Shown: one piece after another, positions 13,394 to 63,175 of the stretch
Numbering within the stretch: position 1 is the first letter of the stretch
Layout of the letters: every line of letters begins with the position of its first letter
From: an uncultured archaeon
GTDB taxonomy: Archaea > Aenigmatarchaeota > Aenigmatarchaeia > QMZP01 > JACQNV01
Assembly: GCA_964410585.1 (NCBI GenBank)
Contig: CAYPFW010000002.1
Coordinates: forward strand, 78,207-142,206
Length of the DNA stretch: 64,000 bases
Reading direction: 5' to 3'
Notes under the pieces: model-generated
The model's input: the letters and a program-made list of their open reading frames with translations, nothing else
What the model was told of the DNA's origin: nothing
Database searches by the model: none
Translations under genes and position numbers: made by a program

Positions 13394-16105
13394 ATGAAAT
13401 GTCCTTTTTGCAGTCATCCAGAAACAAAGGTTATAGATAAAAGAGAGTCTGAAGAAGACTCAAACAGAAGAAGAAGGGAATGCCTTTCATGTGGCAAGCG
13501 CTTCACAACATACGAAAAGCTTGAGTTAAGCTCATCCAAAAAAGTCGACAAATTAGTGAAAAGAGATGGAAGAATAGCTGATTTTGATGCCTCAAGAATA
13601 GAGTCTGCAATTTTCAAGGCAGCAAAGGCAGTTGGTGGTACTGATAGAGAAAGGGCAAAAAAACTAGCAGACGAAGTAATGGAGCAAGTCAACAAAAAGT
13701 TCCTAGGGAAAAAAGACCTCCCAACAGTAGAAGACATCCAAGACATTGTTGAAAAAGTCCTCATCGAAAATGGTCATGCAAAAACAGCAAAGGCCTACAT
13801 CATTTACAGGCAAGAGCGTGCAGAGCTAAGAAATGAAAAAAGAAGAATCTTGGAAAAAGAAGATGTTGACGATGTTGACAAAGTTTTCGACCTAAATGCA
13901 CTTAGAGTTTTGAAATCCAGATATTTGCGAAAAGACGAAAACGGCAAGCTAATCGAAACCCCAAAGCAACTTTTTACTAGGGTAGCAACACATGGAGCGC
14001 TTCCAGATATTTTGTATGACCCTCAATTATACGACATCTCAAAATCTCAGCAACAGCACCCAAAAGAATCTTTCGATCCAAAAACAAACCACGAAAAATA
14101 CAGCATAGGAAAATACAAACTAAACCAATATCACCTGGATGCTTTCAAAAGAATGTATGATAGGTTCAACAAAAATCACCAAATGAAATTCTCATGGTCC
14201 CAGGTTTTGGAAAAGCTTTCAAAAGGTGAACTAAGTTCTTATGAAAAAAATATCACAGAGTTCTATGACATAATGGTCAACAGACAGTTCATGCCAAACA
14301 CACCGGCTATAGCTAATTTTGGAACAGTTCTAGGAATGGGCTCTGCTTGCTTTGTTTTGGGAATAAGAGACTCAATAGACGATATAATGGAAAAATTAAA
14401 ACATGCAGCAGTCATCTTCAAATCAGGCGGCGGAGTCGGCTACAACTTCTCACACCTAAGGCCTGAAGGCGATTTGGTTTCTTCAACATGCGGTCTTGCA
14501 TCTGGTCCCTTGTCTTTCATGTCTATGTTCGACAAAATGACAGAGGTCATCAAACAAGGTGGTATTCGCCGAGGCGCAAACATGGGAATAATGAACTCAG
14601 ATCACCCAGATATTGAAAAATTCATAACAGCAAAAGCAGGCAACAAGGCCTTCAAAAACTTCAACATCTCAGTAAATATCCAACCAGACTTTTGGCAATA
14701 CTATGAAAAAAATGAGCCCTATCCTTTAAGAAATCCAAGAGACGGAACAGTTGTCAAAACAGTTAATTCACGGATGCTTTTTGACAAAATAGTTTACCAG
14801 GCATGGGAATCAGCAGAGCCAGGAGTCATCTTTTCAGACAAAGTAAATGAATACAATCCTTTATACGAATCAATGGGCCCAATTGAAACAACAAATCCTT
14901 GCGGTGAGGTACTCTTGTATCCAAACGAGTCATGCAACCTAGGATCAATAAACGTCTGGGCTTTTGTCAAAGAAGATGTGGATGGAAATGTTTCCTTTGA
15001 TTGGGAAAACTTAGCCCGCGTCTCTCGGTTAGGAGAAAAATTCCTGGACAATGTCATCGAAGTAAACAAGTGGCCTCTACAAGACATAGAAGACATGGCC
15101 TTGAACACAAGAAAAACAGGCCTTGGTGTCATGGGAGTTGGCGACCTTTTGTATGAATTAGGTCTTCCTTATAATACAGATGAAGGCAGAAACTTCATGG
15201 AGAGGCTGATGGAATTTGTCAACTTCTACTCAAAAGTCGAAGGCATCGAACTTGCAAGAACAAGAGGACCTTTCCTATACTACGACAAAAGCTTCTATTC
15301 TGAAGGTAAGCTTCCTTTTGCTGGTTTCTACGACAAAAAATCCTGGAGAATGGACTGGAACCAAATAGTCGACGGCGTCCAAAAACATGGAGTAAGGAAT
15401 GCATTCACAATTGTCGTCGCTCCAACAGGATCAATATCAATGATAGCAGGCTGCTCTTCAGGCATTGAACCTGTCTATTCTTTGGTTTTCGAGAAAAATG
15501 TGAAAGTCGGTTCCTTCTACTATGTGAATCCTATATTCGAAAAATGGATGAGAAGAGAAGGCTTATTCGACGAAAAACTAGTAGAAGATGTAAATGCAAA
15601 CAAAGGAACAGTCAGAAGAGTCGGCTATATTCCAAGAAAATTCAAGGAAATGTTTATCACAGCAATGGACACAACGCCAGAAGACCATATAAGAGCCTTG
15701 GCAGCATTCCAAAAATGGGTTGACTCATCGATCTCAAAAACAAACAACTTCCCGGCAGATGCAACAGTTGAGGATATGAGACAATCTTATCTCCTTGCAT
15801 ACAAGCTAGGATGCAAAGATGTAACTGTGTTTAGAGACACATCAATAAAGGACCAGGTCTTGGTTTCAGGCGTTAAAAAGTCTGAAAAACACGCAGCTGA
15901 CACTGGTTTGAAACCTCAGTTAGGAAAAGAATGGACACCAGAACAACCAATAGCAGTTTCAACAAGTGGTAGTTTCTACCAACAACCAAAAGTAACTACA
16001 AACTTTGGGGAAAAGCCAAAAGTCTGCCCATCTTGTGGATCTGAAACCAAAAGAGAAGAAGGCTGTGTATCTTGCCCTGGCTGCGGTTGGGGCATGTGTA
16101 GCTAG
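13394..16105 (+). CDS. nrdJ: Class II (adenosylcobalamin-dependent) ribonucleotide reductase NrdJ with an N-terminal NrdR-like zinc ribbon plus ATP-cone and a C-terminal zinc ribbon
   Basis: N-terminus MKCPFCSHPETKVIDKRES...RRRECLSCGKRFTTYE matches the NrdR Zn ribbon; ATP-cone (VKRDGRIADFDASRIESAI). Catalytic core hallmarks: NPCGE (nt region 14881-14941), the LGSIN context, and the C-terminal CPSCGS...CVSCPGCG ribbon. Length 903 aa. Confidence 0.85.
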   Translation: MKCPFCSHPETKVIDKRESEEDSNRRRRECLSCGKRFTTYEKLELSSSKKVDKLVKRDGRIADFDASRIESAIFKAAKAVGGTDRERAKKLADEVMEQVNKKFLGKKDLPTVEDIQDIVEKVLIENGHAKTAKAYIIYRQERAELRNEKRRILEKEDVDDVDKVFDLNALRVLKSRYLRKDENGKLIETPKQLFTRVATHGALPDILYDPQLYDISKSQQQHPKESFDPKTNHEKYSIGKYKLNQYHLDAFKRMYDRFNKNHQMKFSWSQVLEKLSKGELSSYEKNITEFYDIMVNRQFMPNTPAIANFGTVLGMGSACFVLGIRDSIDDIMEKLKHAAVIFKSGGGVGYNFSHLRPEGDLVSSTCGLASGPLSFMSMFDKMTEVIKQGGIRRGANMGIMNSDHPDIEKFITAKAGNKAFKNFNISVNIQPDFWQYYEKNEPYPLRNPRDGTVVKTVNSRMLFDKIVYQAWESAEPGVIFSDKVNEYNPLYESMGPIETTNPCGEVLLYPNESCNLGSINVWAFVKEDVDGNVSFDWENLARVSRLGEKFLDNVIEVNKWPLQDIEDMALNTRKTGLGVMGVGDLLYELGLPYNTDEGRNFMERLMEFVNFYSKVEGIELARTRGPFLYYDKSFYSEGKLPFAGFYDKKSWRMDWNQIVDGVQKHGVRNAFTIVVAPTGSISMIAGCSSGIEPVYSLVFEKNVKVGSFYYVNPIFEKWMRREGLFDEKLVEDVNANKGTVRRVGYIPRKFKEMFITAMDTTPEDHIRALAAFQKWVDSSISKTNNFPADATVEDMRQSYLLAYKLGCKDVTVFRDTSIKDQVLVSGVKKSEKHAADTGLKPQLGKEWTPEQPIAVSTSGSFYQQPKVTTNFGEKPKVCPSCGSETKREEGCVSCPGCGWGMCS

Positions 16106-16640: not shown

Positions 16641-17900
16641 ATGAAAAAAATCTTCCTTTCTATTTTTTTGGTTTTGTTTCTTGCAACAACAGTCTCGGCC
16701 TCAAAATATTTTGCACCAACAGACGACTACACAAACCAAACATTCTCAGCCTCCTCGCTTGAAATAGGTGATGTTATTTCAGATGGCCAAGATTTAGGAA
16801 ACACAACATCTGTTCAGTTTTCTACATCAGATGCCCTAAAACTTGCTTTCAAAATCGACAGCACAAAAGACCTCAATTTAAGAGAGCTAAAAATCCAGTT
16901 TTCCCCAGACAAAACAGTGATTGATAAGGGCTCATCAAACATCGATACCTATACTTTGTATGTTCCAAATTCAAACAACGGAAAAGGCATTTTCATCTGT
17001 CCTCAAGCCAAAATTTTGGATGAAGTAAACAAACAGTGTTCGGGAATAAAAAAAATCTTCGAGCCTTTTCCACAAACAGTGCTTTCTGAGACTCCGGTTT
17101 TTGTTGAAATAAATTCAGGCTCCTATTCTGTTTCTGGACTAAAATCAGGTGGCATCGGCCTTCTTTCATCTGAAGACAAACCAGAAAATCAAACAGCTAT
17201 TGCAGGAAATTCGCCGCCTTCGATCCAACTTCTTTCTCCAAAAAACTCAGAAAAAATTTCATCTGATTTTTCCTTTAGGTGCAAAGCAGCAGATGATAAA
17301 GGCTTGCGTCTAATAGAGCTCTATTCAAATGTTAATGGTCCAATGAGCCTTTTGTCCAGAAAGCCAACTGGAAACTTAGAAGATGTTTTAGAATTCCAAC
17401 AACAAAAACCAAAAGCGGGCACATACAGCTGGTATTGCTTGGTTTTAGATGATATAAGCCAGGAAACAAAATCAGAAATCCAATCCTTTGTTGTAGAAGA
17501 TCAGCCATCAATCTGCGCAGAAGATTGGATATGCTCCCCTTTCCAACCTTTGAAATGTGATGTTGGTCACCAAACAAGGACATGCACAGATAAAAATACT
17601 TGTGGTACAGTTCAATTCAAACCAGATGAAGTCAGAGACTGTCAATCAAAGTGTCAGGAAAAATGGTCTTGTACAGATTGGTCTGATCAAAGAGGCTGTG
17701 GAACACGTACATGCAAAGACGAAAACCAGTGCGACAATTCCCAATACCAAACAGAAAAGCCAAAAGAATTTTCAGAGTGCGTAGATCAAGTAGTAGATCA
17801 GCCAACACCAACAAGCCCTCTTATCCTCGGTGTGATAATAGCCGTGATATTGGTTTTATTTTTATTTTTTGTCCTAAAGAGAAAAAAGCAAATTGAATAA
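16641..17900 (+). CDS. Secreted surface protein with a membrane-proximal Cys-rich repeat module and a C-terminal TM anchor
   Basis: Signal peptide. Two copies of the module C-x4-W-x-C-x6-8-C-x3-5-QTR/TRT-C-x4-6-C; C-terminal TM ILGVIIAVILVLFLFFVL plus a KRKK stop-transfer tail. Shares the Cys module with the 1047-aa protein downstream. Confidence 0.5.
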   Translation: MKKIFLSIFLVLFLATTVSASKYFAPTDDYTNQTFSASSLEIGDVISDGQDLGNTTSVQFSTSDALKLAFKIDSTKDLNLRELKIQFSPDKTVIDKGSSNIDTYTLYVPNSNNGKGIFICPQAKILDEVNKQCSGIKKIFEPFPQTVLSETPVFVEINSGSYSVSGLKSGGIGLLSSEDKPENQTAIAGNSPPSIQLLSPKNSEKISSDFSFRCKAADDKGLRLIELYSNVNGPMSLLSRKPTGNLEDVLEFQQQKPKAGTYSWYCLVLDDISQETKSEIQSFVVEDQPSICAEDWICSPFQPLKCDVGHQTRTCTDKNTCGTVQFKPDEVRDCQSKCQEKWSCTDWSDQRGCGTRTCKDENQCDNSQYQTEKPKEFSECVDQVVDQPTPTSPLILGVIIAVILVLFLFFVLKRKKQIE

Positions 17901-17985
17901 TGTGTGATTGGTTAAATTTTCCTATTAAATCAAGTAGTATATAGCCCCCATAATACCTATATATAGGCTCATATAATAATAGTAT

Positions 17986-20900
17986 ATGAGGGGCAAGTTT
18001 CTTTTACCTATATTTCTACTATTCCTAATCCCGGTAGTCCAATCCCAAACATGTGGAAACAATTTGTGCGAATATAATATTTACGAATTTACAAACGGTG
18101 CTCTCAAAACAATCCCAATTTCACCAACGCAGGCAGCAACAGTATCAATGGCCTATAATTCAACAGACAGCATCATACTTAATGTAAATGGTTTTCCTAT
18201 AACTCTTTCAAGGGGCTCGGTTTCATCTGTGCCTAATTCATCTGGCTTGCAGACAATTAACATAAGAGTAGAAGACATAGATGACACAGCCAAAACAGCT
18301 AAATTAGCCTTCGGGGAAAATTCCATATCTTGTAGGTCTGATTGCTTTCTAACGCATAGACTAAGGGTTTCTCAAACCCAACTTCCATCGTACAATTCAA
18401 AAATAGATTGTAGTTCAAATACATGCTTTCTTACATGGCAAGATGGAACAATGATTTATGGGAGTGTTTATGGTAATACACCTAGTCAGCCACAGCAATA
18501 TTTACTCTCAACAAACGTACCAGGTATTAATCTTGAATCAAAAGTAAAAGAGGGTGGAAGTAAGGCACTTATAGTTTGGAGAAATTCCTTTTTTCACCCA
18601 AATCTTCGAAGACCATTCAATGATATTTATGGGGTTCTATTTGACGCCAATGGTCCAATTCAATCAGCACCCATAGCAATCTCTAATAGTACATCGTCAC
18701 CGTTTTTTAAAAGCTTAGGCAGTTTGGCTTTTGACTCAATTTCTAATTACTGGTTAGTTGCTTGGACAGATGCAAGACCCTTAGAGTGGCAATTTTCCAA
18801 TGGAACCAAATCAATAAGATATGATCAGCAGATAATGGGTGCTTTTGTAAACACACAAGGTTCAGTTGGATCAGATGGAAATATTGGAAATCAGGAAACT
18901 GTTCACTCTTTCAATCCAAATTTATTTTTTGATAGGGCATCTGGTCAATACATTCTCTCCTGGTATTCTCCAGGTCAACAAGGCAACGACATAAAAGTTA
19001 CAATATTAAACAAGAATGGAATTGCCCTATTGCAAAATTTTGTTTATCAACAGCAAGCAGACCAAGCAAACCCAGTGGTTAAGAAGGGTAATCCCCATCC
19101 CTTGCTTGTATTCGATGATTTAGTTTCTGCAATCCCTAGTGTGTTTGGACAATTCCTTGGCATAAGATACAATCCAACTGGTCCTCTAGTTCCTGTAAAC
19201 ATTTCATTTTCTAAAGACCAAATAATCAGTGAGCCTGGGTTTGGTCCTGATCTATTTTTCAATTCAAAATCAAATGAATTTGTTCAAGCCTGGTCGCTGA
19301 GCGATAGAATTATACTAAAAAGAATGGATCTAACAGGTGCAGAACTTTCAAGGACAACAATAGAAGGCTATTCCAGACCCTCAATAGGCTATTTAGAATC
19401 AGCAGACAAATATGTGATAGCTGTTGATAGAATAGATAGGCTACCATCTCAAATATATTTGATATTCCTTGACAAAAATTTGAAAGAAGTTTCTATATCA
19501 TCACAGCCAACACCAGCAGTGGGCAGATATACTGCACCAAAAGATGCAGCAACAAAAACATTTTCTGCAACTGATATAGCTGCGAATAGACCTGTAGTAG
19601 ATGGCGAAAATTTAACAACAAACACTGTTTTAGTTTTCAAAAATCCTTCAAATCAACCAAAGCTAAAAGTTGGAATAAAGCCTGCTCAAGGTCCGGTTAA
19701 TTTGTCAAATGTTGTTATAGAATCAAGTGATACAGCAACAGTTGTAAGAGGTTTGTCTGGTTTAGCAAATGTGGAAACAACACACAGTTTGTTTTTACAA
19801 AACGCAAATAATGGTCTAGGCTTGTTTGTATGTCCAACTGCAACAACACTTCCAGAAGTTGTGCAGACTTGCGCAAACAAAGTTGAGTTCACTTCAATAC
19901 CTTCTGTAAATGGTACACTCTCAGTCAATTTCACAGATTCGACAAACTCTACATACCTTGTAGATGGTTTGCAAGGCACAGGAATAGGTTTGATCCAATC
20001 AACACAAAACATAACTTCCCTGAATGTATCAATAGATGGCAGCAAAGTGGTTGGAGAACCTCTTAATTTTAGAGCAAACTATACCAAAAATTCTGTGCCA
20101 ATATCAAATGCTTCTTGTACAATCCTATTTTCAACAGCACCAAATGGCCCTTTCAACATGACAGCCTCTAATAGCACATATGTTTTCAACAGGACTTTTG
20201 CTGATGCAGGAACATACCAAGCAACAGTAGAGTGCTCAAAAGCAAATGAAACAACAAAAAACCAAATTGAATCTTTCACAATTCTAGCCGGTGTTGCAAA
20301 AGCCCCTGTGGTTTTGTTGCAATCCCCTCAAAACAACTTTAATTCACCTAATAATTCAATCACATTCACATGCTTTGCATCTGATACAGAAAACATAAAA
20401 GCAATAGATTTGTTTGCGAACACAGACGGTGCATGGGGATTCAAAAACACACAAACAACACAACCTGTGAAAAACTTCACAGCAACCTTTACCTTAGACA
20501 ATGTACCAAATGGCCAATATCAATGGAATTGTAGGGCAGCAAATGATAAAAATGCTCTGGGTTTTGCCCCAGCAAACTTTACATTTTCAGTCAATGCTCC
20601 AACAATCCCAGATTGTAAAACAACAGACTGGGTATGCAATTCAGAATGGTTCCCAGCAGACGCATCTTGTGAGCCAGGCACAACTCAAACAAGGGCTTGT
20701 CCGCCACCAACAAACTGCAAAAACTCAGATGCAGTAAAACCAACTGACATCGACACAAAAATTTGCTCGAATGTTGCGTGTATAGCCACAGATTATCAAT
20801 GTTTAGCTTGGTCGGAATGTTCTGACAAAGGTCAACAAACAAGATCATGTAGTTTAAAGTCTGGTTTGACATGTTTTGGAAGTCCATCTAAAACAGAAAG

Positions 20901-21129
20901 CCAAACATGCACACCTCCAGGCAATCCTTTCTTGTTGATAGGAATAGTGATAATAATTGTTTTAGGAGTTGTTGGTGCATTCTTCTACTTCCATAGAAAA
21001 GCAAAAACAGCCGATGAAGAAGAAACACTATACCAAGAAGAAAACACAGACGAAAGCGGCGAGCCTTCCTATGACCAAGGCGAATATCCACCAGAAGAAG
21101 GTGGAGACGCTGGAGAAGAAGAGAAATAG
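17986..21129 (+). CDS. Large (1047 aa) surface protein: Thr/Ser/Asn-rich ectodomain, the same Cys-rich stalk module, TM anchor, acidic cytoplasmic tail
   Basis: Signal peptide; ectodomain with many N-x-S/T sequons; C-terminal modules CKTTDWVC...QTRAC and CIATDYQC...QQTRSC; TM LLIGIVIIIVLGVVGAFFYF; D/E-rich tail. Confidence 0.5.
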   Translation: MRGKFLLPIFLLFLIPVVQSQTCGNNLCEYNIYEFTNGALKTIPISPTQAATVSMAYNSTDSIILNVNGFPITLSRGSVSSVPNSSGLQTINIRVEDIDDTAKTAKLAFGENSISCRSDCFLTHRLRVSQTQLPSYNSKIDCSSNTCFLTWQDGTMIYGSVYGNTPSQPQQYLLSTNVPGINLESKVKEGGSKALIVWRNSFFHPNLRRPFNDIYGVLFDANGPIQSAPIAISNSTSSPFFKSLGSLAFDSISNYWLVAWTDARPLEWQFSNGTKSIRYDQQIMGAFVNTQGSVGSDGNIGNQETVHSFNPNLFFDRASGQYILSWYSPGQQGNDIKVTILNKNGIALLQNFVYQQQADQANPVVKKGNPHPLLVFDDLVSAIPSVFGQFLGIRYNPTGPLVPVNISFSKDQIISEPGFGPDLFFNSKSNEFVQAWSLSDRIILKRMDLTGAELSRTTIEGYSRPSIGYLESADKYVIAVDRIDRLPSQIYLIFLDKNLKEVSISSQPTPAVGRYTAPKDAATKTFSATDIAANRPVVDGENLTTNTVLVFKNPSNQPKLKVGIKPAQGPVNLSNVVIESSDTATVVRGLSGLANVETTHSLFLQNANNGLGLFVCPTATTLPEVVQTCANKVEFTSIPSVNGTLSVNFTDSTNSTYLVDGLQGTGIGLIQSTQNITSLNVSIDGSKVVGEPLNFRANYTKNSVPISNASCTILFSTAPNGPFNMTASNSTYVFNRTFADAGTYQATVECSKANETTKNQIESFTILAGVAKAPVVLLQSPQNNFNSPNNSITFTCFASDTENIKAIDLFANTDGAWGFKNTQTTQPVKNFTATFTLDNVPNGQYQWNCRAANDKNALGFAPANFTFSVNAPTIPDCKTTDWVCNSEWFPADASCEPGTTQTRACPPPTNCKNSDAVKPTDIDTKICSNVACIATDYQCLAWSECSDKGQQTRSCSLKSGLTCFGSPSKTESQTCTPPGNPFLLIGIVIIIVLGVVGAFFYFHRKAKTADEEETLYQEENTDESGEPSYDQGEYPPEEGGDAGEEEK

Positions 21130-23790: not shown

Positions 23791-24654
23791 CTATTTTATT
23801 ATGAGTTCAAGTGCTTCGTTTATATTACTTACTTCTACAACATCCAAACCACTTATAGAAGTAGTTTCGCCATCAGGAACATAAAATGTGCTCACACCAT
23901 ATCTTTTAGCTGCTTCTGCTTTTGCAGAAACACCACCAACTTTTCCAATATTTCCACTACCTTCAATAGTTCCGGTCATCATAGAATCTGTGTCCATGTT
24001 TTTGTTTTCAAGAGCAGCATACATTGTGACTGTGACAGCTGCACCAGCAGATGGCCCATCTAAAACAACAAGATCTTTGTCTTCGTTTACAAAGCTGACA
24101 GTTATGTCTTTTTTAGACAAATCAATTCCAGTCAGCTGAGAGGCAACCTCAGAAGCTGTTCTAATAGAAGCTGTTGCGCCGCTCTGCAAATCAACTCCTT
24201 TGATATTCACTGAAAGAATTCCAGTTCCTTTGGAGATCTTAACATTCATTGGAATAACAACACCTGTGCTGTCACTTTTTACACCAACTGCAAAATAGTT
24301 TTTAATTGTTGGGGTAAGGGCCTCTATCTCATTCTTTGCGACCTCTAAATTAAGCTCCGTTTGTCCAAGTTGCCTGCTTAGGTTTGAAATTTGACTTGCC
24401 TTTTTAGCTACATCTGTTTGTAAATCAACAATATTGTTTTCTAGTCCATCAATTTTAACATTCAAGTTGTTTATTGTTGAATTTTGTTCGAATACAATTC
24501 CTCTTAATCCCAAAATTGTTTGAGTTTGGTTATTGATGACATTTGTCTTCTGTACACTGTCTAAATAAAATACAGAAGTAGATAAGCCTAAAGCAATAAT
24601 TACAACAACAAAAATCACACGAACATTATCTATTGGTTGTTTGTTTTTCGCCAT
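23791..24654 (-). CDS. Membrane-anchored S16 (Lon C-terminal proteolytic domain) peptidase
   Basis: N-terminal TM; coiled-coil linker; catalytic motifs GPSAG (Ser) and KVGGVSAKAEAAKRYG (Lys) of the Lon protease domain. It is inserted between rpl11 and rpl1. Confidence 0.65.
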   Translation of the reverse strand: MAKNKQPIDNVRVIFVVVIIALGLSTSVFYLDSVQKTNVINNQTQTILGLRGIVFEQNSTINNLNVKIDGLENNIVDLQTDVAKKASQISNLSRQLGQTELNLEVAKNEIEALTPTIKNYFAVGVKSDSTGVVIPMNVKISKGTGILSVNIKGVDLQSGATASIRTASEVASQLTGIDLSKKDITVSFVNEDKDLVVLDGPSAGAAVTVTMYAALENKNMDTDSMMTGTIEGSGNIGKVGGVSAKAEAAKRYGVSTFYVPDGETTSISGLDVVEVSNINEALELIIK

Positions 24655-24780: not shown

Positions 24781-25344
24781 TCACTTACCTTTCTTTACTT
24801 TCCTTTTCTTTTCCTCTTTTTTAGCTTCAGGAGGAGGCGTTTTTGCAGCTGGTGCTGCAGGTGTCGCAGCTGCTGTTGTAGCAGCAGGTGTTGCAGCTAC
24901 AGCATCTTTCTTTTTCTCGCCTGGTTTGACTATTGGCACATTTTCTTCGCCAACATAAACAGCCATGCTTCTAGCTGTTCCAACAATTTGATTATAAAAA
25001 GAATCTTCATCTGATCCAAATTTAGCCTTTGCTATCTTCCTTGCTTGTTCTGGTTTTAATTTTCCAATCCATCCTTTCCCAGCTTCGCCAGATCCTTTCG
25101 GGACACCAGCTTCTTTTGCAATCAAAGCAGATGCAGGAGGTGTTCCAACATCTATATTGAATGTCTTATCAGAATTAACAGTAACTTTGACAGGGACTTG
25201 CATGCCTTTTAGCTCTGCTGTTTTCTTGTTTATCTCTTCGACAACCTTTCCTATAGGCACACCCAAAGGGCCCAATGCGGGGCCAAGCGGCGGTGCTGCC
25301 GTTGCTTTTCCACCTTCTACAATAACTGAAACAGATTGTCCCAT
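24781..25344 (-). CDS. rpl11: 50S ribosomal protein L11 with an unusual Ala/Thr/Pro/Lys-rich C-terminal extension of about 40 aa
   Basis: Core VKVTVNSDKTFNIDVGTPPASALIAKEAG is typical of L11. Tail AATPAATTAAATPAAPAAKTPPPEAKKEEKKRKVKKGK. Confidence 0.85.
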   Translation of the reverse strand: MGQSVSVIVEGGKATAAPPLGPALGPLGVPIGKVVEEINKKTAELKGMQVPVKVTVNSDKTFNIDVGTPPASALIAKEAGVPKGSGEAGKGWIGKLKPEQARKIAKAKFGSDEDSFYNQIVGTARSMAVYVGEENVPIVKPGEKKKDAVAATPAATTAAATPAAPAAKTPPPEAKKEEKKRKVKKGK

Positions 25345-25458
25345 AATCTAAATAGCCTTTAATCACTATTGTATACCTTTACTATTTATAAGTTTGTTTT
25401 AGAGCAATTCTTTTAGAAATAGAATAAAACTAAAAATAGGAAGAAAAATAAACTTCCT

Positions 25459-25857
25459 TTAAGCTTGTTTTTCAGGTTGTTTGTCTCCAAGTCTTTCTCT
25501 TGTATATCTGCCTAGGTTTGTTACAGCTCTAGTTATTTTTGGATCTTTTAAGCTTGCAGCTATAAGTCTTAGGAGCTCATCTTGTCTATAAGCAACATCT
25601 CTTAGAGCAGCAGTTTCTGCAGATAGGTCTTTATCAGCACTACCTAAATCTCTTATTTGATCATCATAAGCACCTTGATTAACTTTTCCTCTCAAAGCAG
25701 CGTCTGTTCTGCTTTCAAGTTCTCTGAAAGCACCATCTGCTTGACCTGCTAAAGACTCTAGTGCAGGATAAACACCTTTACCCTTATCTAATTTTACATA
25801 TGTCCTTGGCTGTGTGCCTTGAGGAACTTCAGATTGTTTTCTTGCCATAAACATCAC
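25459..25857 (-). CDS. Hypothetical protein (Arg/Ala/Asp/Leu-rich), first in transcription order... last of a compositionally atypical three-gene operon
   Basis: Composition differs from the K/N/I-rich proteome around it; predicted helical; no motif recognised. Confidence 0.4.
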   Translation of the reverse strand: MMFMARKQSEVPQGTQPRTYVKLDKGKGVYPALESLAGQADGAFRELESRTDAALRGKVNQGAYDDQIRDLGSADKDLSAETAALRDVAYRQDELLRLIAASLKDPKITRAVTNLGRYTRERLGDKQPEKQA

Positions 25858-25931
25858 CTTAAACTACTCTTTAATATACCACTAAGATATATAAGCTTAT
25901 TTGTTACTATCCTATAGTTTTAAAAACCTTT

Positions 25932-26849
25932 CTACTTAATGTACCTTCTTCTTGCTTCCTTTACTTTTTGTTGAAGAGCCTCATCACCTAGAGATCTGGC
26001 AAACGATTCGAATAGATCAAGCATATCTCCCCTGAAATCTGAAGCTTCCACAACTGGCTGAGATGGAGTTGCTGGCTCCTGCTTTGCAGCTTCCAATTTT
26101 TCAAGTGCTTCTGCAACTTCTCCAGCCTTTCTTTCAGCTTTTTCCAAACCTTCATTTACTGTTCTCAATCTTAATTCATATCCTTCAATGGCGCCTCTGA
26201 CTCCTGGTTGTGTCTCTGTTCCCTGAAGCTCTAAATCAATTTCTGCAATAGAAGCTCGTGCGTCTTGGAGTTCTTTTCTTAGTCCAGAATTTCCATCTTC
26301 GCCATACAATTCTAATCTCAATCTCTTGACTTCTTCTGGAACTCCAGTATACCTTCTTAATTCTTCTAAATATCCCCGGACTCTTACAAGCAATCCTGGA
26401 TTTTGCTCGTCTCCGCGAATTATTTTTAGCAGTTCAGTTGCATCTGCATTTAGGCTTTGTAAAGTTTGTGTTTCTGGTTCTACTGCTCCTAAATCAACCA
26501 AAGGCGCCTCTTTATTTCCCTCTGCTGTCTGTTCTAATTTTTCCAGCCTTTTTTTCAAATCTTCCAAAGCTTCTGGCAAACTTTCATATCCAGCTGAAAA
26601 ATCTGCTGGTTTCAATTCTTCTATTTTTGCATCTTCAGGTATTCCAAGAAGCCTGCGAAAAAAACCAATTGGAGCAAGATAGTCTTTAACAGCATTTGTT
26701 GCATATTCTCTAACTTTACCAGGGAAAATTTGCATCACATCTTTTAAGTATTGGAAAGAAACAAAGTTTGCATTTACGAAATCCTTCACTTGACTTCCAG
26801 TGACATATTTTGGTTTAGGTTGTTCTTCTGTCATTTTACCCACCTTCAA
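25932..26849 (-). CDS. Hypothetical coiled-coil protein (Glu/Leu/Arg/Ala-rich), middle gene of the atypical operon
   Basis: 305 aa, long heptad-like E/L/R/K stretches. 14-nt overlap with the upstream gene suggests translational coupling. Confidence 0.4.
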   Translation of the reverse strand: MKVGKMTEEQPKPKYVTGSQVKDFVNANFVSFQYLKDVMQIFPGKVREYATNAVKDYLAPIGFFRRLLGIPEDAKIEELKPADFSAGYESLPEALEDLKKRLEKLEQTAEGNKEAPLVDLGAVEPETQTLQSLNADATELLKIIRGDEQNPGLLVRVRGYLEELRRYTGVPEEVKRLRLELYGEDGNSGLRKELQDARASIAEIDLELQGTETQPGVRGAIEGYELRLRTVNEGLEKAERKAGEVAEALEKLEAAKQEPATPSQPVVEASDFRGDMLDLFESFARSLGDEALQQKVKEARRRYIK

Positions 26850-28473
26850 AAAGATCGTCTACGAATTTCTTTGGATCAACAGGTCCACCTTCAACGCTAA
26901 GATCATCGTCTGCTGGTGCTGGTTTTGGAGCTGGCTTAGGTGCTGCCGGAGCTTTTGGTTTTGGTGAAGGTTTTGAAGCACCTCCTGTTCTTGGTGGAGC
27001 TTCAGCTTCACGTCTTCGAGGTGGCGCTCCTCTTTCAGGTTCTTGTGCTCTGTATCCAGTCAAAGCTGAGATTACTGAGCCACCAAGTTCTTGTAATCTA
27101 GTAGCATATCTTCCAAGTTCTTCTCTAATTCCGCCAAAAGCGCTTGACACAGCAGTATCTACAGACCTTTGGTCAACTGGTATTGTTCTTCCTTTCAAAG
27201 AATTATCAACAGCTTTTCTAACAGAATCTTCATCAACAAGAACTGTCCTTCCTCTAAGCGCAGCATCAACGGCTCTGTTAACTGATTCTGGATCAACTGG
27301 TACAGATCTTCTTTCCATCTCTGCATCAATTGCTGCTTTCACAGCTGCTGCAATTGGTTGAATATTAACATCTACTGTTCTTCCTTCCATTGCTTTTTCA
27401 ACAGCGCTTTTCACAGCGTCATCTAATCCTCTTAGGTCAATAGGAACTCTTCTATCCCCAAAAGCAGCATCTACAGCAGCCGCCACATAAGAATTTATTT
27501 TTTCCTGATCAACACCAAGTGTCCTCCCATCAAATGCTTTGTCTACAGATGTTTTCACAGAATTTGGATCAATTGATATTTGTCTATCTCTGAAATAATT
27601 TCCAAGAGCTTCTGAAACAGCAGAAGTAAGCGCTGTTCTATCTGTTGGTTCTTTTCCTTTCAGTGCTTCTTCAACAGCTTTTTTCAGTGCTTCTGAATCT
27701 ACAGAAAATGTTTTCCCCTGAAGAGCAGCATCAACTGCAGTTTTAATATCTGCATACAATTCATTTCGATCAACTTTAGCAGTGACTCCCCTTGCTGCTT
27801 CTGAAAATATTTGTGAAAGTCTATTATAATCAATTTGTTGTCCTTGTGCTGTTGCTAGCTTTCTTATTTCCACTAAATCTGTTTCTGAAAGTCCATATCT
27901 TTTTTCTAAAAGTTGGTTTGCCAAACCGCCAACTTGATCCAACTTTCCTATTGCCTCACCAAGTTTTTGTACAAGTGCGTCAACGTCTTGTGTTTTTGTG
28001 TGACTTGGTTCTGTGGCTTCTGTCGCAGGTTTTGATTGAGCTTCTTTTATTTGATCAAGACAATTTCTAACTTCCTCAAAAATTGCAACCATGAAAATGT
28101 CGCTTGCTCCTGTTGCTATTTTTTCTATTTGTTCTGTTTTTCCCCAGAAAGCATCCGCCAAAATTTGATATCCTTTTTCTATTTGATTTGCCCAAGATTC
28201 CATTCCCTTAACTGCTCTAGCTAATTGAGTCTCATATGGTTTGTCTTGTGCTGCAAGTATTTTTGCAATTTCTAAGTCAGATAAATAACCATTAATTCGA
28301 TCAAGAACTCTTGGAACCCTTTCATCTCCTCTTTCCATTGCCCTTCTAAACCTGGGGTGTTGTGTTGTTAATTTATATAATCTCCTATACACACCTTCTA
28401 GTCTTTCAATTGGTCCTGTGCCTTCTATTCCTGCTTCTTCGAATAAGAACTGGTATAAAGTCCTTTCTGCCAT
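26836..28473 (-). CDS. Hypothetical 545-aa protein with about ten tandem 19-22-aa repeats [V/I]D-x2-SV-x2-AVD-x-AL-x-GRT and a Pro/Ala/Lys-rich C-terminal tail
   Basis: Repeat region spans roughly aa 205-440 (nt about 27150-27860). Tail APKPAPKPAPADDD. Local GC about 42% against about 32% in the flanks. Confidence 0.45.
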   Translation of the reverse strand: MAERTLYQFLFEEAGIEGTGPIERLEGVYRRLYKLTTQHPRFRRAMERGDERVPRVLDRINGYLSDLEIAKILAAQDKPYETQLARAVKGMESWANQIEKGYQILADAFWGKTEQIEKIATGASDIFMVAIFEEVRNCLDQIKEAQSKPATEATEPSHTKTQDVDALVQKLGEAIGKLDQVGGLANQLLEKRYGLSETDLVEIRKLATAQGQQIDYNRLSQIFSEAARGVTAKVDRNELYADIKTAVDAALQGKTFSVDSEALKKAVEEALKGKEPTDRTALTSAVSEALGNYFRDRQISIDPNSVKTSVDKAFDGRTLGVDQEKINSYVAAAVDAAFGDRRVPIDLRGLDDAVKSAVEKAMEGRTVDVNIQPIAAAVKAAIDAEMERRSVPVDPESVNRAVDAALRGRTVLVDEDSVRKAVDNSLKGRTIPVDQRSVDTAVSSAFGGIREELGRYATRLQELGGSVISALTGYRAQEPERGAPPRRREAEAPPRTGGASKPSPKPKAPAAPKPAPKPAPADDDLSVEGGPVDPKKFVDDLFEGG

Positions 28474-28559
28474 AATTACCCATCAGTGGTATTTAACTTA
28501 ATTTATCGCAGTAAGTCTTTTAAAGGGAAAGCTAAAAAACCGTAAAACTTAAATAGGGT

Positions 28560-30224: not shown

Positions 30225-31355
30225 ATGAATTCGCTTATACAATCGGCCTTTGAAAGGGTCGCAGCTGGAACATCTTCAGGTCCTGTTAAATCAGAGCCTG
30301 TTGTAACACCTGAACAATTGAAAGCATTAGCTCAAGAGTTTGGGATAGAAGCAAAGGATGCAAAAATAGTTGTAGTTGGTGCAGGCGGAGGCGGTAACAA
30401 CACAGTGACAAGGCTCGCTAACATGGGAGTCACGGGGGCAAAAACAATAGCAATGAACACAGACATGAAACACTTAGCTGTCTCAAAAGCAGATCAAAGG
30501 CTTCTCATAGGAAAAGAATTGACAAGAGGCCTTGGTGCAGGCGGTTATCCAGACATAGGCAGACGCGCAGCAGAAGAAAGTGAAAGAGAAATCAAACAGG
30601 CAATACAAGGTGCTGATATGCTTTATGTTGTTGGTGGTCTTGGTGGTGGAACAGGAACAGGCTCCCTTCCAGTAATTGCAAAATATGGAAAAGAAATGGG
30701 TGCTATTGTAATAGGCACAGTCACAATGCCTTTCAAAATCGAAGGAACAAGAATGAGAAAAGCAGAAGAAGGCTTGCAACTATTAAGACAAGTCTCTGAC
30801 ACATCAATTGTGATACAGAATGACAAGCTTCTAAGGTTCGCAGGCGATCTTCCAATTGAACAGGCTTTTCAGTTGGCCGACAATCTAATTGCAACAATGT
30901 TGAAAGGCGTCACAGAAACAATTGCAACACCTTCTCTTGTCAACCTAGATTATGCAGATGTTCGAGCTATAATGCATTCTGGTGGTGTCGCAGCAGTTGG
31001 TTTTGGAGAATCAAATACAAAAAACAGAGCAGAAGATGCAGCAATAAAGGCATTGACAAACCCGCTTTTGGAAGTAGACTACGCAGGCGGTTCAGGCGCG
31101 CTCTTGCACATCACAGGTGGCAAGGATCTAAAACTTGATGAAGTCAATTTAGTTGGTGAATATGTTTCAAGCCAATTAGACGACGATGCACAAGTCATTT
31201 GGGGAACAAGGATAGATCCAGCAATGACAGGAAAAATAAGGGTGATCACAATAATCACAGGCGTCAAATCACCATACATCTTAGCTCCTGTTGAAAAGCA
31301 AAGAGAAGTCCAAAGAAATTTCCAACAAGAACTGGGGATTGATTTGCTTGCCTAG
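30225..31355 (+). CDS. ftsZ: Cell division GTPase FtsZ
   Basis: Tubulin signature GGGTGTG; N-terminal [10 protein letters not shown]; 376 aa. Confidence 0.9.
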
Positions 31356-36688: not shown

Positions 36689-37417
36689 ATGAGATTTCCA
36701 ATAGTTGTCAAAAGAGGATTTGGCGAGCATATCGAATACTCAAATTTATCAGCCGGCCTTCAAGAATCATTGAGAGATTTGGGTGTTTTAGATCCAAAAA
36801 CAAATCAACCTCGGCAAAATTATTTTGATCTTGAAATAGCTGAAACTCCTTTGGTTGTGTGTTTGAATGAATTTTTTGACCTAACTCCACAATTTCACAT
36901 TGGTTGTTCACTTGATGAAAGGCCTCCGAGTTTTAGTTTTTTAGCCTCTTCAGGATCATATGAAACAAGAGAAGGCAAATTTCATTTATCTTATACAAGA
37001 CACCTAAAATGGGATGTTTTTGCATGCGGTGATTTTTTGAGAAATGATCAAGGTCATAGGGATCTACATGCCACTGCATCTGCTTTCAACGACAGAAAAA
37101 ATTATGTAGAAGGTATATCAGTTGGTTGGCACGGTTGGTCTGGTGAAATGATTGGGGATAGGAAATCTGGATTCTATGGCGATAGAGTTTATTTGGAAAT
37201 GGATGCACAGAGACCAGAAAGATCAAAGCTTGTTTATCAGGAAAAATTAGAGCCTAAATTGAGGGCTCTTATAGAAGGCAATTTACCACAAGGTCAGGAT
37301 TATCCTGTTTCCGATGCTATTTTTTCATTGATGAAAATGGCAAGCAGAGTTTTCGCAACAAAATTAGATGTTGATTCTAACAGACAGAAAATAGAAAAAG
37401 CATGCGAGGGACTTTAG
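36689..37417 (+). CDS. Hypothetical protein in the lipid cluster
   Basis: 242 aa, no motif recognised. Confidence 0.3.
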   Translation: MRFPIVVKRGFGEHIEYSNLSAGLQESLRDLGVLDPKTNQPRQNYFDLEIAETPLVVCLNEFFDLTPQFHIGCSLDERPPSFSFLASSGSYETREGKFHLSYTRHLKWDVFACGDFLRNDQGHRDLHATASAFNDRKNYVEGISVGWHGWSGEMIGDRKSGFYGDRVYLEMDAQRPERSKLVYQEKLEPKLRALIEGNLPQGQDYPVSDAIFSLMKMASRVFATKLDVDSNRQKIEKACEGL

Positions 37418-45037: not shown

Positions 45038-45090
45038 GTTTTCTTTGGGTACGGTAGACTTTCTTTTTCTAAAAGAAAGGCTAGCACTCA
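45038..45090 (+). ncRNA. Copy B of the repeated intergenic element: 5' box TTTTCTTTGGGTACGGTAGA, 9-bp hairpin CTTTCTTTT/AAAAGAAAG (loop TCT), 3' box GCTAGCACTC; followed by a 110-nt GC-rich stretch (45091-45200)
   Basis: Near-identical ends to copies A, D and E. The adjacent GC-rich segment contains long-range complementary blocks (TATCGG/CCGATCG). Confidence 0.45.
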
Positions 45091-45272
45091 CGACCTATCG
45101 GTGTCTGAACGATTGCGTTTGGCAAATGCTAAACTGCACGCGCCTACAGCCGATCGCTCTAAGCCACTGGGCTACCCCGGGATTGTATTATTTGCAACGA
45201 GTGATTTATATTAGTTTTTGGATGAGCAACTCAATCAACGCTTTTAATCCAATATATTCAACTAATTATATG

Positions 45273-46439
45273 AAATTTGTGATATTCCACGGGTCTTTTG
45301 GGAGTCCTGAAGGCAATTGGTTTCCAGAGCTGAAAGAAAAACTGGAGCATTTTGGTCAAGTTGTCCTTATTCCAAAATTCCCTGTAGACAGTTGGAATGA
45401 GCTGACAAATAACCCAAAAAAACAATTGAATCAAAGCCTTGAAAGCTGGCTCAAAGAGTTTGAAAGAATCCAAAAAACTTTCAAAAAAGACGAAAAACTC
45501 TGCCTTGTTGGTCACTCTCTTGGTTGTCTTTTCATCCTCCATGTTGTATCAAAATACAATATCAGCCTTGACAGTGCAATTTTTGTCTCACCCTTTCTGG
45601 AAAAACTAAACAAACAGTGGCAAATAGATTTAGTGAATAAAACATTTTACAAAACAGACTTTGATTTCAAAAAACTGAAAGCCTCAATCCCAGTTTCCTA
45701 TGTTTTGTATTCAGACAATGATCCATATGTTGACAAAAAATATGCTTTGGATTTTGCTGAAAAAACAGGAAGCTCGGTGATTTTTGTGAAAAGTGCGGGA
45801 CACATGAATGCTGAAGTCAACCTAAATGAGTTTCCTCTTGTCTACGAGCTTTGCAAAACAAGGCTCGATCTTTCCCTATACCAAAGCTACCTTGCACATA
45901 GAAGGGAGCTGTTCTCAGTCGACTACACAAAGGGAAAAACAGAAGAGATAGTTTTCATCGATCCAAAAGAAATAATTGACGAGGGTGTCTTCCATTTCAG
46001 GAATCTCAAAAAATCAGGCTTCTGCACATTCTACACTGCACTGGATTTCTCAGACCCAGAATCAATATACATGAAAGAAGCAAGAAAGGCGGCAAAAAGA
46101 ATCAAAGATCTGACTCGAGTTTTCATAGTAAACGATCTCGCGGACTTGGAAAAAGAAAATATTAGGAAACAAATCAAACTTGACATAGAATCGGGCATCC
46201 GCGTATATTTCTGCATGTTTGGTTCAGTAAAAGATTTGTCAGAACCTGATTTTGGTATTTGGGACGAAGACTATTTGTGCATTGTTAACTTTGACAAAAA
46301 CAAAGTGACAGGTGTCAAATTGACAAGCCGGGAAAAAGATATATCAGAAGCATTGAAGTGGAAGGAAAAAATTCTGAGCAAAGCAACAAAAATAAATTCA
46401 GAAAAAGATATAGAAGATTTTAGGAGAAAACATGAGTGA
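45273..46439 (+). CDS. Serine hydrolase (RBBP9/YdeN-like alpha/beta fold) fused to a C-terminal domain of unknown function
   Basis: MKFVIFHGSFGSPEGNW..., nucleophile elbow VGHSLGC, C-terminal GHMNAE. The listed ORF start at 45045 is rejected because that region is the GC-rich non-coding segment. Confidence 0.6.
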   Translation, partial: KFVIFHGSFGSPEGNWFPELKEKLEHFGQVVLIPKFPVDSWNELTNNPKKQLNQSLESWLKEFERIQKTFKKDEKLCLVGHSLGCLFILHVVSKYNISLDSAIFVSPFLEKLNKQWQIDLVNKTFYKTDFDFKKLKASIPVSYVLYSDNDPYVDKKYALDFAEKTGSSVIFVKSAGHMNAEVNLNEFPLVYELCKTRLDLSLYQSYLAHRRELFSVDYTKGKTEEIVFIDPKEIIDEGVFHFRNLKKSGFCTFYTALDFSDPESIYMKEARKAAKRIKDLTRVFIVNDLADLEKENIRKQIKLDIESGIRVYFCMFGSVKDLSEPDFGIWDEDYLCIVNFDKNKVTGVKLTSREKDISEALKWKEKILSKATKINSEKDIEDFRRKHE

Positions 46440-58381: not shown

Positions 58382-58456
58382 TTATATAAATGGGGTTACC
58401 CGGATTTGAACCGGGGTCGGACGCTCCCAAGGCGCCAATCCTAAGCCAAGCTAGAC
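58382..58456 (-). tRNA. tRNA-Pro (anticodon UGG)
   Basis: Cloverleaf: acceptor GGGGTTA/TAACCCC, anticodon stem GGCGC/GCGTC with loop CTTGGGA, T-loop TTCAAAT, discriminator A; 75 nt, no encoded CCA. Confidence 0.85.
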
Positions 58457-58664
58457 GATAACCCCATATATCTAAAGGATTTATTCTTATTGTTTTAAAT
58501 AGTAATATATGAATATGGATCAGATGATTTCTACCTTAGAAACCGCTCTTATAGAATGTGGATACTGTGGAGCAAAAAATTTTAAAAGTACATGCGCAGA
58601 AATGTCTTACAAAACTTGTTCTAGGTGTTTGGGATCTTTGAAAATTTAAGCTTTTTTATTAAAA

Positions 58665-59763: not shown

Positions 59764-59850
59764 AGCCCCAAGGGAGAATTGAACTCCCAACCTACAGTTT
59801 ACGAAAATCGACATACAAATTCTGTCGCTCTACCATTGAGCTACTGAGGC
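59764..59850 (-). tRNA. tRNA-Thr (anticodon CGU) interrupted by a 15-nt intron at the non-canonical position 30/31
   Basis: Exon 1 = 59822-59850, intron = 59807-59821 (AATTTGTATGTCGAT), exon 2 = 59764-59806. The spliced product has anticodon stem ACAGT/ACTGT, loop TTCGTAA, T-loop TTCAATT, discriminator U. The splice sites sit in 3-nt bulges (AG^A and AT^T) flanking a perfect 4-bp helix CGAC/GTCG (relaxed BHB). Confidence 0.7.
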
Positions 59851-62567: not shown

Positions 62568-62788
62568 TATTCATATGAAGGATATATAAAGTTATCTGTC
62601 TTCTAAAAAGAAATGGGAAAGGATCAGTTGTTCCTTTCCAGTTCCTTGATCCTTTCGGCAACTCCTTGTGCCTCTTTTTCGAGGTTTTCTTTGTATTCTT
62701 TTAAGATTTCTATCTTTTCATCCTTTGTAAGGAATCCCCTAGACCCGCAAAAACTTGTGTCACAATACATACGTCCTCCTTCCGAAAA

Positions 62789-62853
62789 CATCGGATATAC
62801 GATATTATTAGGCGAAGGTACTTATAAACATATCGTATATACGATATTCGACA
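62789..62853. promoter_or_regulatory. Candidate operator: perfect 20-bp palindrome AATATCGTATATACGATATT (62832-62851) plus a half-site copy GGATATACGATATT (62794-62807), in the divergent promoter region between the ArsR-hemerythrin operon and a PadR-like gene
   Basis: Direct reading of the sequence; located 30-90 bp upstream of the PadR-like start at 62882. Confidence 0.4.
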
Positions 62854-62881
62854 ATTTAAATATCGCCTACCCAATATATGT

Positions 62882-63175
62882 ATGAAAAAAGAAGAAGCAT
62901 GTGATATGAGAGGATTTTTATCATTTTTGATTCTGCTTCTACTATCAAAAAAATCAATGAGCGGGAAGGAAATAACAAAGGAGATAGAGAAAAGAAAGGG
63001 TTGTAAACCCAGTCCAGGAACAATTTATCCCGCACTAAAATCTCTAAAATCTTGCGGTTTTTTAAAAGAGAGGAAAAGCGGAAAGGAAATTAGTTACACT
63101 TTAACAGATGATGGTAGAAGAGCTCTAAAAATAGCAAAGGAGCAGTTCTGTAAAACCTTCATGGAATTTTTCTAA
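62882..63175 (+). CDS. PadR-family transcriptional regulator (short type)
   Basis: 97 aa; LSFLILLLLSKKSMSGKEI...GTIYPALKSLKSCGFLK winged-helix signature. Confidence 0.6.
   Translation: MKKEEACDMRGFLSFLILLLLSKKSMSGKEITKEIEKRKGCKPSPGTIYPALKSLKSCGFLKERKSGKEISYTLTDDGRRALKIAKEQFCKTFMEFF

Follow-up and report, generated by a model that had tools for sequence, protein, structure and literature searches.

A stretch of 64,000 nucleotides (nt) from an uncultured archaeon of the Aenigmatarchaeota (contig CAYPFW010000002.1), hereafter the window, carries three consecutive minus-strand open reading frames (ORFs), here called genes 1, 2, and 3, directly upstream of the gene for ribosomal protein L11 (24781-25344). 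We hold with good confidence that these genes form a native, lineage-restricted orphan module of a small AT-rich archaeon, probably one of the DPANN type. The fuller explanation, in which the native module is its own transcription unit and its products assemble as a structural or tethering complex, seems to us to have an even chance of being correct, and the function that we propose, that of an abundant cytoplasmic scaffold or tether, is put forward tentatively. We speak of an orphan module, not of a demonstrated new mechanism.

The three genes and their relatives

Downstream of the module, on the same strand, follow the genes for L11, a Lon_C-like protein, L1, L10, and L12, while upstream of gene 1 lie TatD (+), aIF2beta (-), and FtsZ (+). 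The original prediction, made from the letters of the window, had described three consecutive, overlapping genes encoding 132, 305, and 545 amino acids (aa). The genes are consecutive, but they do not overlap, since gene 2 starts 1 nt past the gene 1 stop and gene 3 follows only after 83 nt; likewise, the 545-aa length stands, but the other two are corrected to 129 and 300 aa from ATG starts (Table 1). The 305-aa version of gene 2 uses an upstream TTG, where the ortholog and the gene callers favor the ATG, and the 132-aa version of gene 3 begins at a GTG inside its Shine–Dalgarno sequence. The ATG starts of both genes are used by independent gene calls on two Logan contigs of identical sequence, and the alignments of both proteins with their orthologs start at the same residues as the ATG versions.

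A module devoid of annotation and of any Pfam domain could be read as a set of spurious ORFs or a mis-assembly. Set against this are the presence of ORFs of 545, 300, and 129 aa in a genome of 37% G+C content (GC), the recovery of the identical module sequence on contigs from two independent sequencing runs, orthologs with preserved reading frames and a ratio of nonsynonymous to synonymous change (dN/dS) below 0.5, and the conservation of start contexts and Shine–Dalgarno sequences. The comparative data thus refute the artifact reading, whose probability is practically nil and which is effectively excluded: the three genes are real.

Relatives of the module are exceedingly few. Apart from the query proteins, word-indexed searches of 5.8 billion clusters turned up a single ortholog of each, and a profile search with gene 3 found only itself and its ortholog at a locus of a related species (L003). 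At that locus, genes 1, 2, and 3 correspond to P0002 (594 aa), P0004 (310 aa), and P0013 (130 aa), respectively. HMMER, run exhaustively with a gene 1 profile against 1.84 billion representatives, gave a family of three members including the window protein, the third being P0010, a distant homolog of 461 aa (E = 1e-32) that is rich in Arg, Ala, Glu, and Gly and lies on a 1.5-kb contig devoid of gene context. The same search also gave two repeat-only matches, and P0011, one such match, was set aside as a eukaryote-like junk repeat. No loci were found in JGI metagenome contigs or IMG/VR, and no tblastn match in INPHARED phages or PLSDB plasmids.

Scans of the three proteins against Pfam, NCBIfam, PHROG, and PADLOC produced sub-threshold noise only (e.g., ATP-cone and LXG). 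With the PADLOC defense models this was coiled-coil noise (ZorA, E = 0.0018, 14.8 bits; LmuB, E = 0.02), and for families of helical filaments and scaffolds (ESCRT-III/PspA/Vipp1, SMC-like, and DivIVA) the Pfam and NCBIfam matches fell far below gathering scores. Against sequence profiles of the PDB, neither gene 1 nor gene 2 had a match, and weak matches of gene 3 to designed armadillo proteins and DJ-1 were judged compositional. Paralogy among the three proteins was rejected by hhalign, with probabilities below 2%. By these searches, no described family or system matches the module. Of the two origins that the original prediction had offered, an uncharacterized lineage-specific system is supported by this result and by the mere two other homologs of the large protein among the 1.84 billion representatives, whereas derivation from a phage or plasmid found no relatives in IMG/VR, INPHARED, or PLSDB.

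Inheritance and position upstream of L11

The gene order at L003 runs aIF2beta, a HicAB insert, TatD (-), the genes for 594, 310, and 130 aa, and L11, i.e., the same arrangement as in the window. The module is thus conserved in position, and the proposal of a recent acquisition meets the difficulty that the same site, between TatD and L11, is already occupied in the second species. Protein identity between the two loci is 56% for gene 1 (dN/dS ~0.45), 61% for gene 2 (dN/dS 0.40), and 58% for gene 3 (dN/dS 0.42), compared with 88% for TatD (dN/dS 0.07) and 82% for L11 (dN/dS 0.19), and the synonymous-site difference (pS) in the three genes is ~0.46-0.49. Together, these comparisons show that two species or more have the module by vertical descent and that purifying selection acts on it, although it evolves several times faster than the genes flanking it. 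The insert between aIF2beta and TatD at L003 (358-1070), which is extra relative to the window, comprises a HicA/HicB toxin–antitoxin pair and a 59-aa ORF.

We also examined the slot that the module occupies. As had been predicted, this is where archaea usually have secE and nusG: the pair lies directly upstream of L11 in 19 of the 29 evaluable archaeal loci, 15 of these 19 also with ftsZ, and the other 10 have unrelated genes in place of secE–nusG. The ftsZ-secE-spt5 and L11-L1-L10-L12 segments have been described as often, not always, joined (PMC10833476). In the window, FtsZ (30225-31355, +) is encoded on the opposite strand to L11, 1.7 kb from the module, with aIF2beta and TatD between. 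The products expected in the slot are SecE, of ~60 aa with one transmembrane helix, and Spt5, which consists of NGN and KOW domains. Hidden Markov models (HMMs) built from 12 SecE and 13 Spt5 sequences of archaeal L11 loci found no SecE or Spt5/NusG in the six-frame translation of the 64-kb window (best E = 0.19 and 1.5, respectively), and Pfam found none either, so that a check on the whereabouts of the two genes, called for by the original prediction, places neither of them within the window. From the orientation of FtsZ and the lack of SecE and Spt5 in 64 kb it follows that a rearrangement separated the two segments. The slot nevertheless says little about function, because secE–nusG are likewise missing from this place in about one-third of the archaeal L11 loci sampled and because the module has promoters of its own and a terminator-like element; its position upstream of L11 is without functional implication.

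Composition and codon usage

In the module proteins, Arg, Ala, Glu, and Leu are plentiful (together 0.36-0.42 of residues) and Lys, Asn, and Ile scarce (0.11-0.14, vs. ~0.22 in typical window ORFs), just as the original prediction had described them. Its companion claim, that all other proteins of the window are Lys/Asn/Ile-rich, is contradicted by five other Arg-rich ORFs (at 31392, 32653, 36689, 58665, and 60612) in which R/(R+K) is 0.52-0.68. The module proteins are compositional outliers, yet not unique in the window. One of these ORFs, at 36689-37417 (+), encodes a 242-aa Arg-rich protein that has no Pfam match and strongly host-biased codons (z = +3.1; see below for the score) and may be another lineage-specific, well-expressed protein.

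At the DNA level, the window has a GC of 36.6%, not the ~33% that had been assumed, and the local rise to ~42% proved correct as a 500-nt peak (42.8%) but not for the three genes overall (39-40%). L11 (44%), FtsZ (43%), and other regions of the window are as GC-high as the module. Its GC is raised at codon positions 1 and 2 only, and the excess sits at position 1 (0.58 vs. ~0.44) because the proteins are made up largely of Ala, Glu, Asp, Val, Gly, and Arg, and GC at the third codon position (GC3) is lower than in other window ORFs (0.14-0.23 vs. ~0.30). Most Arg codons are AGA (55 of 78), most Ala codons GCA or GCT, and most Glu codons GAA.

Codon fit was calculated for 70 ORFs as the likelihood per codon given the synonymous preferences of the window itself, and the three genes rank 1st, 2nd, and 7th among these ORFs. 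In an amino-acid control, synonymous codons were resampled with each protein sequence held fixed; gene 1 then had a z-score of +4.84, the maximum of the window, gene 3 one of +2.58, and gene 2 one of +1.43, compared with +2.33 and +1.99 for the ribosomal-protein genes L12 and L10. Thus, the GC3 check and the codon-usage check against the window both gave host-like values where the original prediction had called the genes compositionally foreign, and it follows from GC3 and from synonymous codon choice that fits the window's preferences more closely than expected that the DNA of the module is native. The module has the look of coding sequence that is strongly adapted to the host and probably highly expressed, since a codon bias like that of ribosomal-protein genes suggests abundant products. 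The most atypical synonymous codon usage of the window is found elsewhere, at 45045-46439 (+; z = -4.6), which encodes a serine hydrolase/alpha-beta hydrolase, and at 62613-62885 (+; z = -4.4), and a foreign origin is more plausible for these two ORFs than for the module.

It is at this point that a recent horizontal acquisition, from a phage, a plasmid, or a GC-richer donor, has to be weighed. It would account for the unusual amino-acid make-up and the locally higher GC, it could draw on the similarly Arg/Ala/Glu/Gly-rich composition of P0010, and it would fit with the break here in the usual ftsZ-secE-nusG-L11 synteny. Yet the synonymous codon usage is the most host-like of the window and GC3 is below average, a second species carries the module at the same site, between flanking genes of 82-88% identity, no integrase, tRNA gene, or repeat adjoins it (the only tRNA genes of the window are 30 kb off), and searches of the virus, phage, and plasmid collections gave no match. 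Codon usage, shared position, and the lack of mobile-element relatives largely refute recent transfer, which is barely credible and, as we see it, effectively excluded.

Regulatory DNA and unit boundaries

The two spacers of the module that bear TATA-like elements, i.e., the divergent region between TatD and gene 1 and the 83-nt region between genes 2 and 3, are both 87% identical to their counterparts at L003 (Table 1). As synonymous sites differ at ~46-49%, and at ~46-59% in the genes adjoining the TatD/gene 1 spacer, these spacers are strongly constrained. An RNA element in the 83-nt spacer was considered and rejected, there being no Rfam match and no significant RNA fold (z = 0.1 and -0.75).

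At the junction of genes 1 and 2, the final codons of gene 1 (GAAGGTGGG) contain the Shine–Dalgarno sequence of gene 2 (AAGGTGGG) and thereby serve a double purpose. At L003, GAAGGT precedes an ATGA in which the two genes overlap. On this evidence, genes 1 and 2 are translationally coupled in both species, and the conservation of the coupling suggests that their proteins are made in matched amounts.

Directly past the gene 3 stop, the window has a terminator-like hairpin followed by a T-rich run. L003 has one at the same place, built on a different stem (GAAAGAC...GTCTTTC) and also followed by a T-run; the fold statistics of the hairpins are weak (z = -1.0 and -2.2). Next comes the promoter-like block of L11, and the stretch just upstream of this block is variable between the two loci, with an indel. 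Because a hairpin and T-run are followed by a conserved L11 promoter block, the module is most likely a transcription unit separate from L11-L1-L10-L12. One conserved promoter region would then serve the coupled pair of genes 1 and 2, the second TATA-like box and the strong ribosome-binding site would serve gene 3, and the hairpin with its T-run would close the unit ahead of the separate L11 promoter.

Architecture of the gene 1 protein

The gene 1 protein is soluble, acidic (isoelectric point [pI] 5.3), and hydrophilic overall (grand average of hydropathy, -0.5). A three-way alignment of the window protein, P0002, and P0010, together with the repeat analysis and the charge profile, divides it into five parts: an N-terminal helical domain, a repeat array, a further helix after the repeats, a linker, and a C-terminal peptide (Table 1). 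The N-terminal domain contains the near-invariant motif G-x-G-(P-I)-ERLEG[VI]YR-x-LY-x-LT-x-x-HP-x-F. In the array, the repeat consensus is [VIL]-P-[VI]-D-x-x-S-V-x-x-A-V-[DE]-x-A-L-x-G-R-T, with autocorrelation peaks at lags of 20 and 24 residues. Of the earlier description of about ten repeats of 19-22 aa, the number survives and the length does not, the units being of 20 or 24 aa. An HMM of the unit counted 10 in the window protein, 11 in P0002, and ~2 in P0010. No tandem repeat of the array is seen at the DNA level, and the repeats are therefore old and maintained at the protein level. AlphaFold2 modeled the protein as helices only, joined by loops of 6-10 residues, with a low predicted local distance difference test (pLDDT) score of 49.

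The PAPKPAPKPA stretch to which the original prediction drew attention is present, although as part of the linker and not as the tail that it was taken for; the true C-terminus is a conserved acidic-aromatic peptide. The linker has a net charge of +6, no predicted secondary structure, and a pLDDT of 26-39, and it varies in length and sequence among the gene 1 homologs. The C-terminal core, F-[VL]-D-D-[LI]-F, is conserved in all three homologs. A stretch resembling this linker occurs in L11 of the window, a protein of 187 aa whose Ala/Pro/Thr/Lys-rich low-complexity C-terminal extension of ~55 aa (24781-24950, -; ...AATPAATTAAATPAAPAAKTPPPEAKKEEKKRKVKKGK) is a feature in its own right.

The repeats resemble the N-terminal repeats of phage tail-spike, tail-fibre, and minor tail proteins. 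Both consist of tandem units of ~18-24 residues with one short amphipathic helix each, hydrophobic positions at i, i+3/4, and i+7/8, and a Pro/Gly turn that closes the unit, and they share the motif D-x-x-x-[IV]-x-x-A-[IV]-x-x-[YA]-[LF]-x-x-x-P. The module could accordingly be an anciently domesticated, viral fibre-like one, its repeat rod stemming from phage helix-turn spacer repeats and now used in cellular attachment or tethering. In keeping with this idea, the gene 1 repeats match those of P0012, a metagenomic phage protein with a phage-family N-terminus (phrog_19695), at an hhalign probability of 93% (E = 3.4e-7, 33% identity over 49 columns); the P0012 repeats recur in a mycobacteriophage Kersh lipase and in gp084 of Pantoea phage vB_PagM_LIET2, an exopolysaccharide depolymerase/tail-spike whose N-terminus is filled with this repeat type; and the module proteins evolve fast. 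However, the likeness is confined to a short periodic motif, which does not allow homology to be separated from convergence. The turn is G-R-T-[VI]-P in gene 1 and N-P in the phage repeats; the gene 1 protein has no receptor-binding or depolymerase domain; its N-terminal domain, linker, and tail, as well as genes 2 and 3, have no phage counterpart, and the N-terminal domain and genes 2 and 3 are without viral relatives. Moreover, the genes stand among housekeeping genes with no virion, integrase, or lysis genes nearby, codon usage is native, and export signals, signal peptides included, are absent. On balance, we consider a domesticated viral module unlikely.

Segmented helical rods are also known from T4 fibritin and from exchangeable apolipoproteins, the latter with proline-punctuated 22-mers. 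Like these, the gene 1 protein has short helices broken by Gly or Pro and a copy number that varies between orthologs, and P0010 has a weak Apolipoprotein match (E = 0.05). It differs from them in that its hydrophobic face is formed by small residues (Ala and Val) and that there is no significant sequence or fold match.

Likenesses of the C-terminal peptide

In FtsZ and bacterial SSB, a folded domain is followed by a disordered linker and a conserved C-terminal docking peptide. The gene 1 protein follows the same plan, in which a low-complexity linker, variable in length, leads from a structured body to a short, conserved peptide at the terminus, and the acidic-aromatic tip of the protein resembles the DDDIPF tip of SSB. 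It has neither a tubulin nor an OB fold, however, and its peptide differs from the C-terminus of the same organism's FtsZ, ELGIDLLA.

The peptide also invites comparison with the ribosomal P-stalk tail, in which L103, L106, and F107 of aP1 are essential for binding aEF1A and aEF2 (PMC4267659). If the likeness were functional, the gene 1 protein would be a translation-linked factor whose tail imitates that of the stalk and binds aEF1A, aEF2, and aIF5B. The tail F-[VL]-D-D-[LI]-F-G/E shares the spacing hydrophobic(-4)-x-x-hydrophobic(-1)-F with the aP1 tail GL[SGA][AS]LFG, and the LF motif in the form [VL]-D-D-[LI]-F occurs in all three gene 1 homologs; the tail is carried on a flexible linker, the codon bias is like that of ribosomal-protein genes, and gene 1 neighbors the stalk genes L11-L1-L10-L12. 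The details speak against such a role: the position equivalent to L100 (-7) is Lys, 2-8 residues follow the F so that the terminal Gly carboxylate that salt-bridges aEF1A is missing, the linker is basic and Pro/Lys-rich and not an acidic EEKKEE hinge, there is no Ribosomal_60s domain at the N-terminus, and the module is most likely a separate transcription unit, in a slot that holds unrelated genes in other lineages. We regard a translation-linked factor as very unlikely. A variant, in which the tail of the scaffold mimics the P-stalk LF motif and thereby gathers or sequesters translational GTPases off the ribosome, as a factor pool or a translation brake, the module having been recruited beside the stalk genes and P0 having no tail of its own, is a long shot.

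A third comparison is with the PCNA-interacting (PIP) pattern, Q-x-x-[LIVM]-x-x-[FYW]-[FYWL]. Here the protein would be a DNA-associated scaffold, whose basic PKPK linker binds nucleic acid and whose C-terminal peptide is a degenerate PIP-like motif. P0010 does end in Q-K-F-L-D-D-I-F, close to the pattern, and the linker is Lys/Pro-rich like the tails of histone H1, but the Gln is absent from both full-module proteins (KKFVDDLF in the window and GSFVDDIF in P0002), position 7 is aliphatic instead of aromatic, and the neighborhood has no replication or repair genes. A DNA-associated scaffold is, in our assessment, highly improbable.

A tentative model of the module

The gene 2 protein is acidic (pI 4.9), and AlphaFold2 returned an all-helical model of low confidence (pLDDT 50); the gene 3 protein is basic (pI 9.2) and helical. 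Hydrophobic segments and signal-like N-termini are absent from all three proteins (maximum KD19, 0.88).

We propose that the three soluble, alpha-helical, fast-evolving products come together in the cytoplasm as a structural or tethering complex. In it, the large subunit would form a modular rod, topped by a conserved helical head, and the length of the rod would be set by the copy number of the 20- or 24-residue unit, which differs between the species; the basic, proline-rich segment after the repeat rod would act as a flexible tether, and the acidic-aromatic peptide F-[VL]-D-D-[LI]-F may dock a partner. High expression, complex formation, rod shape, and a docking role for the tail are thus what we infer.

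Several points weigh against this proposal. The full module is carried by only two genomes, which makes co-occurrence statistics impossible. In a genome that is AT-rich, codon bias offers no more than a proxy for abundance. The C-terminal tail resembles several motif classes, each only partly. The AlphaFold2 models, built on two-sequence alignments, are of low confidence (pLDDT 49-50), so that rod shape and oligomerization are no more than putative, and Foldseek searches with these models against the PDB and BFVD gave generic helical matches only, none with E < 0.01.

Table 1. Coordinates of the module, the parts of the gene 1 protein, and the associated regulatory DNA (window positions)
Feature	Position	Strand	Details
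Gene 1	26836-28473	-	545 aa; ORF call and ortholog P0002
N-terminal conserved helical domain	27784-28473	-	~aa 1-230; three-way alignment
Repeat array	27124-27774	-	aa 234-450; 10 helix-turn repeats, 20 or 24 residues each
Basic Pro/Lys/Arg/Ala-rich low-complexity linker, including PKPKAPAAPKPAPKPAPA	26899-27048	-	~aa 476-525
C-terminal peptide PVDPKKFVDDLFEGG	26839-26883	-	Alignment
Gene 2	25932-26834	-	300 aa from ATG; ortholog P0004
Gene 3	25459-25848	-	129 aa from ATG; ortholog P0013
TatD/gene 1 divergent intergenic region	28474-28559	.	75/86 positions identical to L003 spacer
TATA-like element CTTTAAAAG	~28517-28525		~45 nt upstream of gene 1 ATG
Gene 2/gene 3 spacer, 83 nt	25849-25931	-	72/83 positions identical to L003
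TATA-like box TTATATAT	25887-25894	-	In 83-nt spacer before gene 3
Strong Shine–Dalgarno sequence AAGGTGAT	25853-25860	-	Ahead of gene 3
Terminator-like hairpin AGGAAG...CTTCCT, then T-rich run	25423-25458	-	Directly past gene 3 stop
Promoter-like region of L11 AAACTTATAAATAG	25381-25410	-	Near-identical in L003

Other features of the window

Between L11 and L1 lies a gene (23791-24654, -) for a 287-aa protein with an N-terminal hydrophobic segment, a coiled coil, and a Lon protease C-terminal (S16) domain that comes without an ATPase domain. Among 32 other archaeal L11 loci, relatives of this protein were found only in one (L015), away from the L11–L1 junction. The stalk protein P0 (L10; 22212-23045, -) is 277 aa long and has no acidic LF tail, and L12 of the window keeps the canonical stalk tail. 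A tailless P0 is also present in many loci of Micrarchaeota and Aenigmatarchaeota and so looks lineage-wide; being common in DPANN loci, it was rejected as a special feature of this genome.

Farther away, a 903-aa ribonucleotide reductase (13394-16105, +) has an NrdR-like zinc ribbon fused before its ATP-cone domain. Two large ORFs at 16641-21129 (+) encode 419 and 1047 aa and have no match among precomputed Pfam assignments. Their N-termini are signal-like, and toward the C-terminus they have Cys-rich modules and a hydrophobic anchor, traits consistent with secreted or surface proteins. Two tRNA genes (58391-58465 and 59764-59850) enclose the gene for an Arg-rich protein of 365 aa, whose helix-turn-helix domains are HTH_23 and HTH_7 (resolvase-type) and which may be the remnant of a mobile element.

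Implications

The module illustrates that an Arg/Ala/Glu-rich block of higher GC in an AT-rich genome can be fully native, and that nativeness is to be judged by GC3 and synonymous codon choice, not by total GC. In reduced archaea of this kind, nearly all of the cell-biological machinery remains uncharacterized. The conserved terminal peptide of the gene 1 protein offers a direct experimental handle on a partner, and if the products are indeed abundant structural proteins, the module would provide a reduced, probably symbiotic archaeon with a cytoskeletal or tethering system specific to its lineage.

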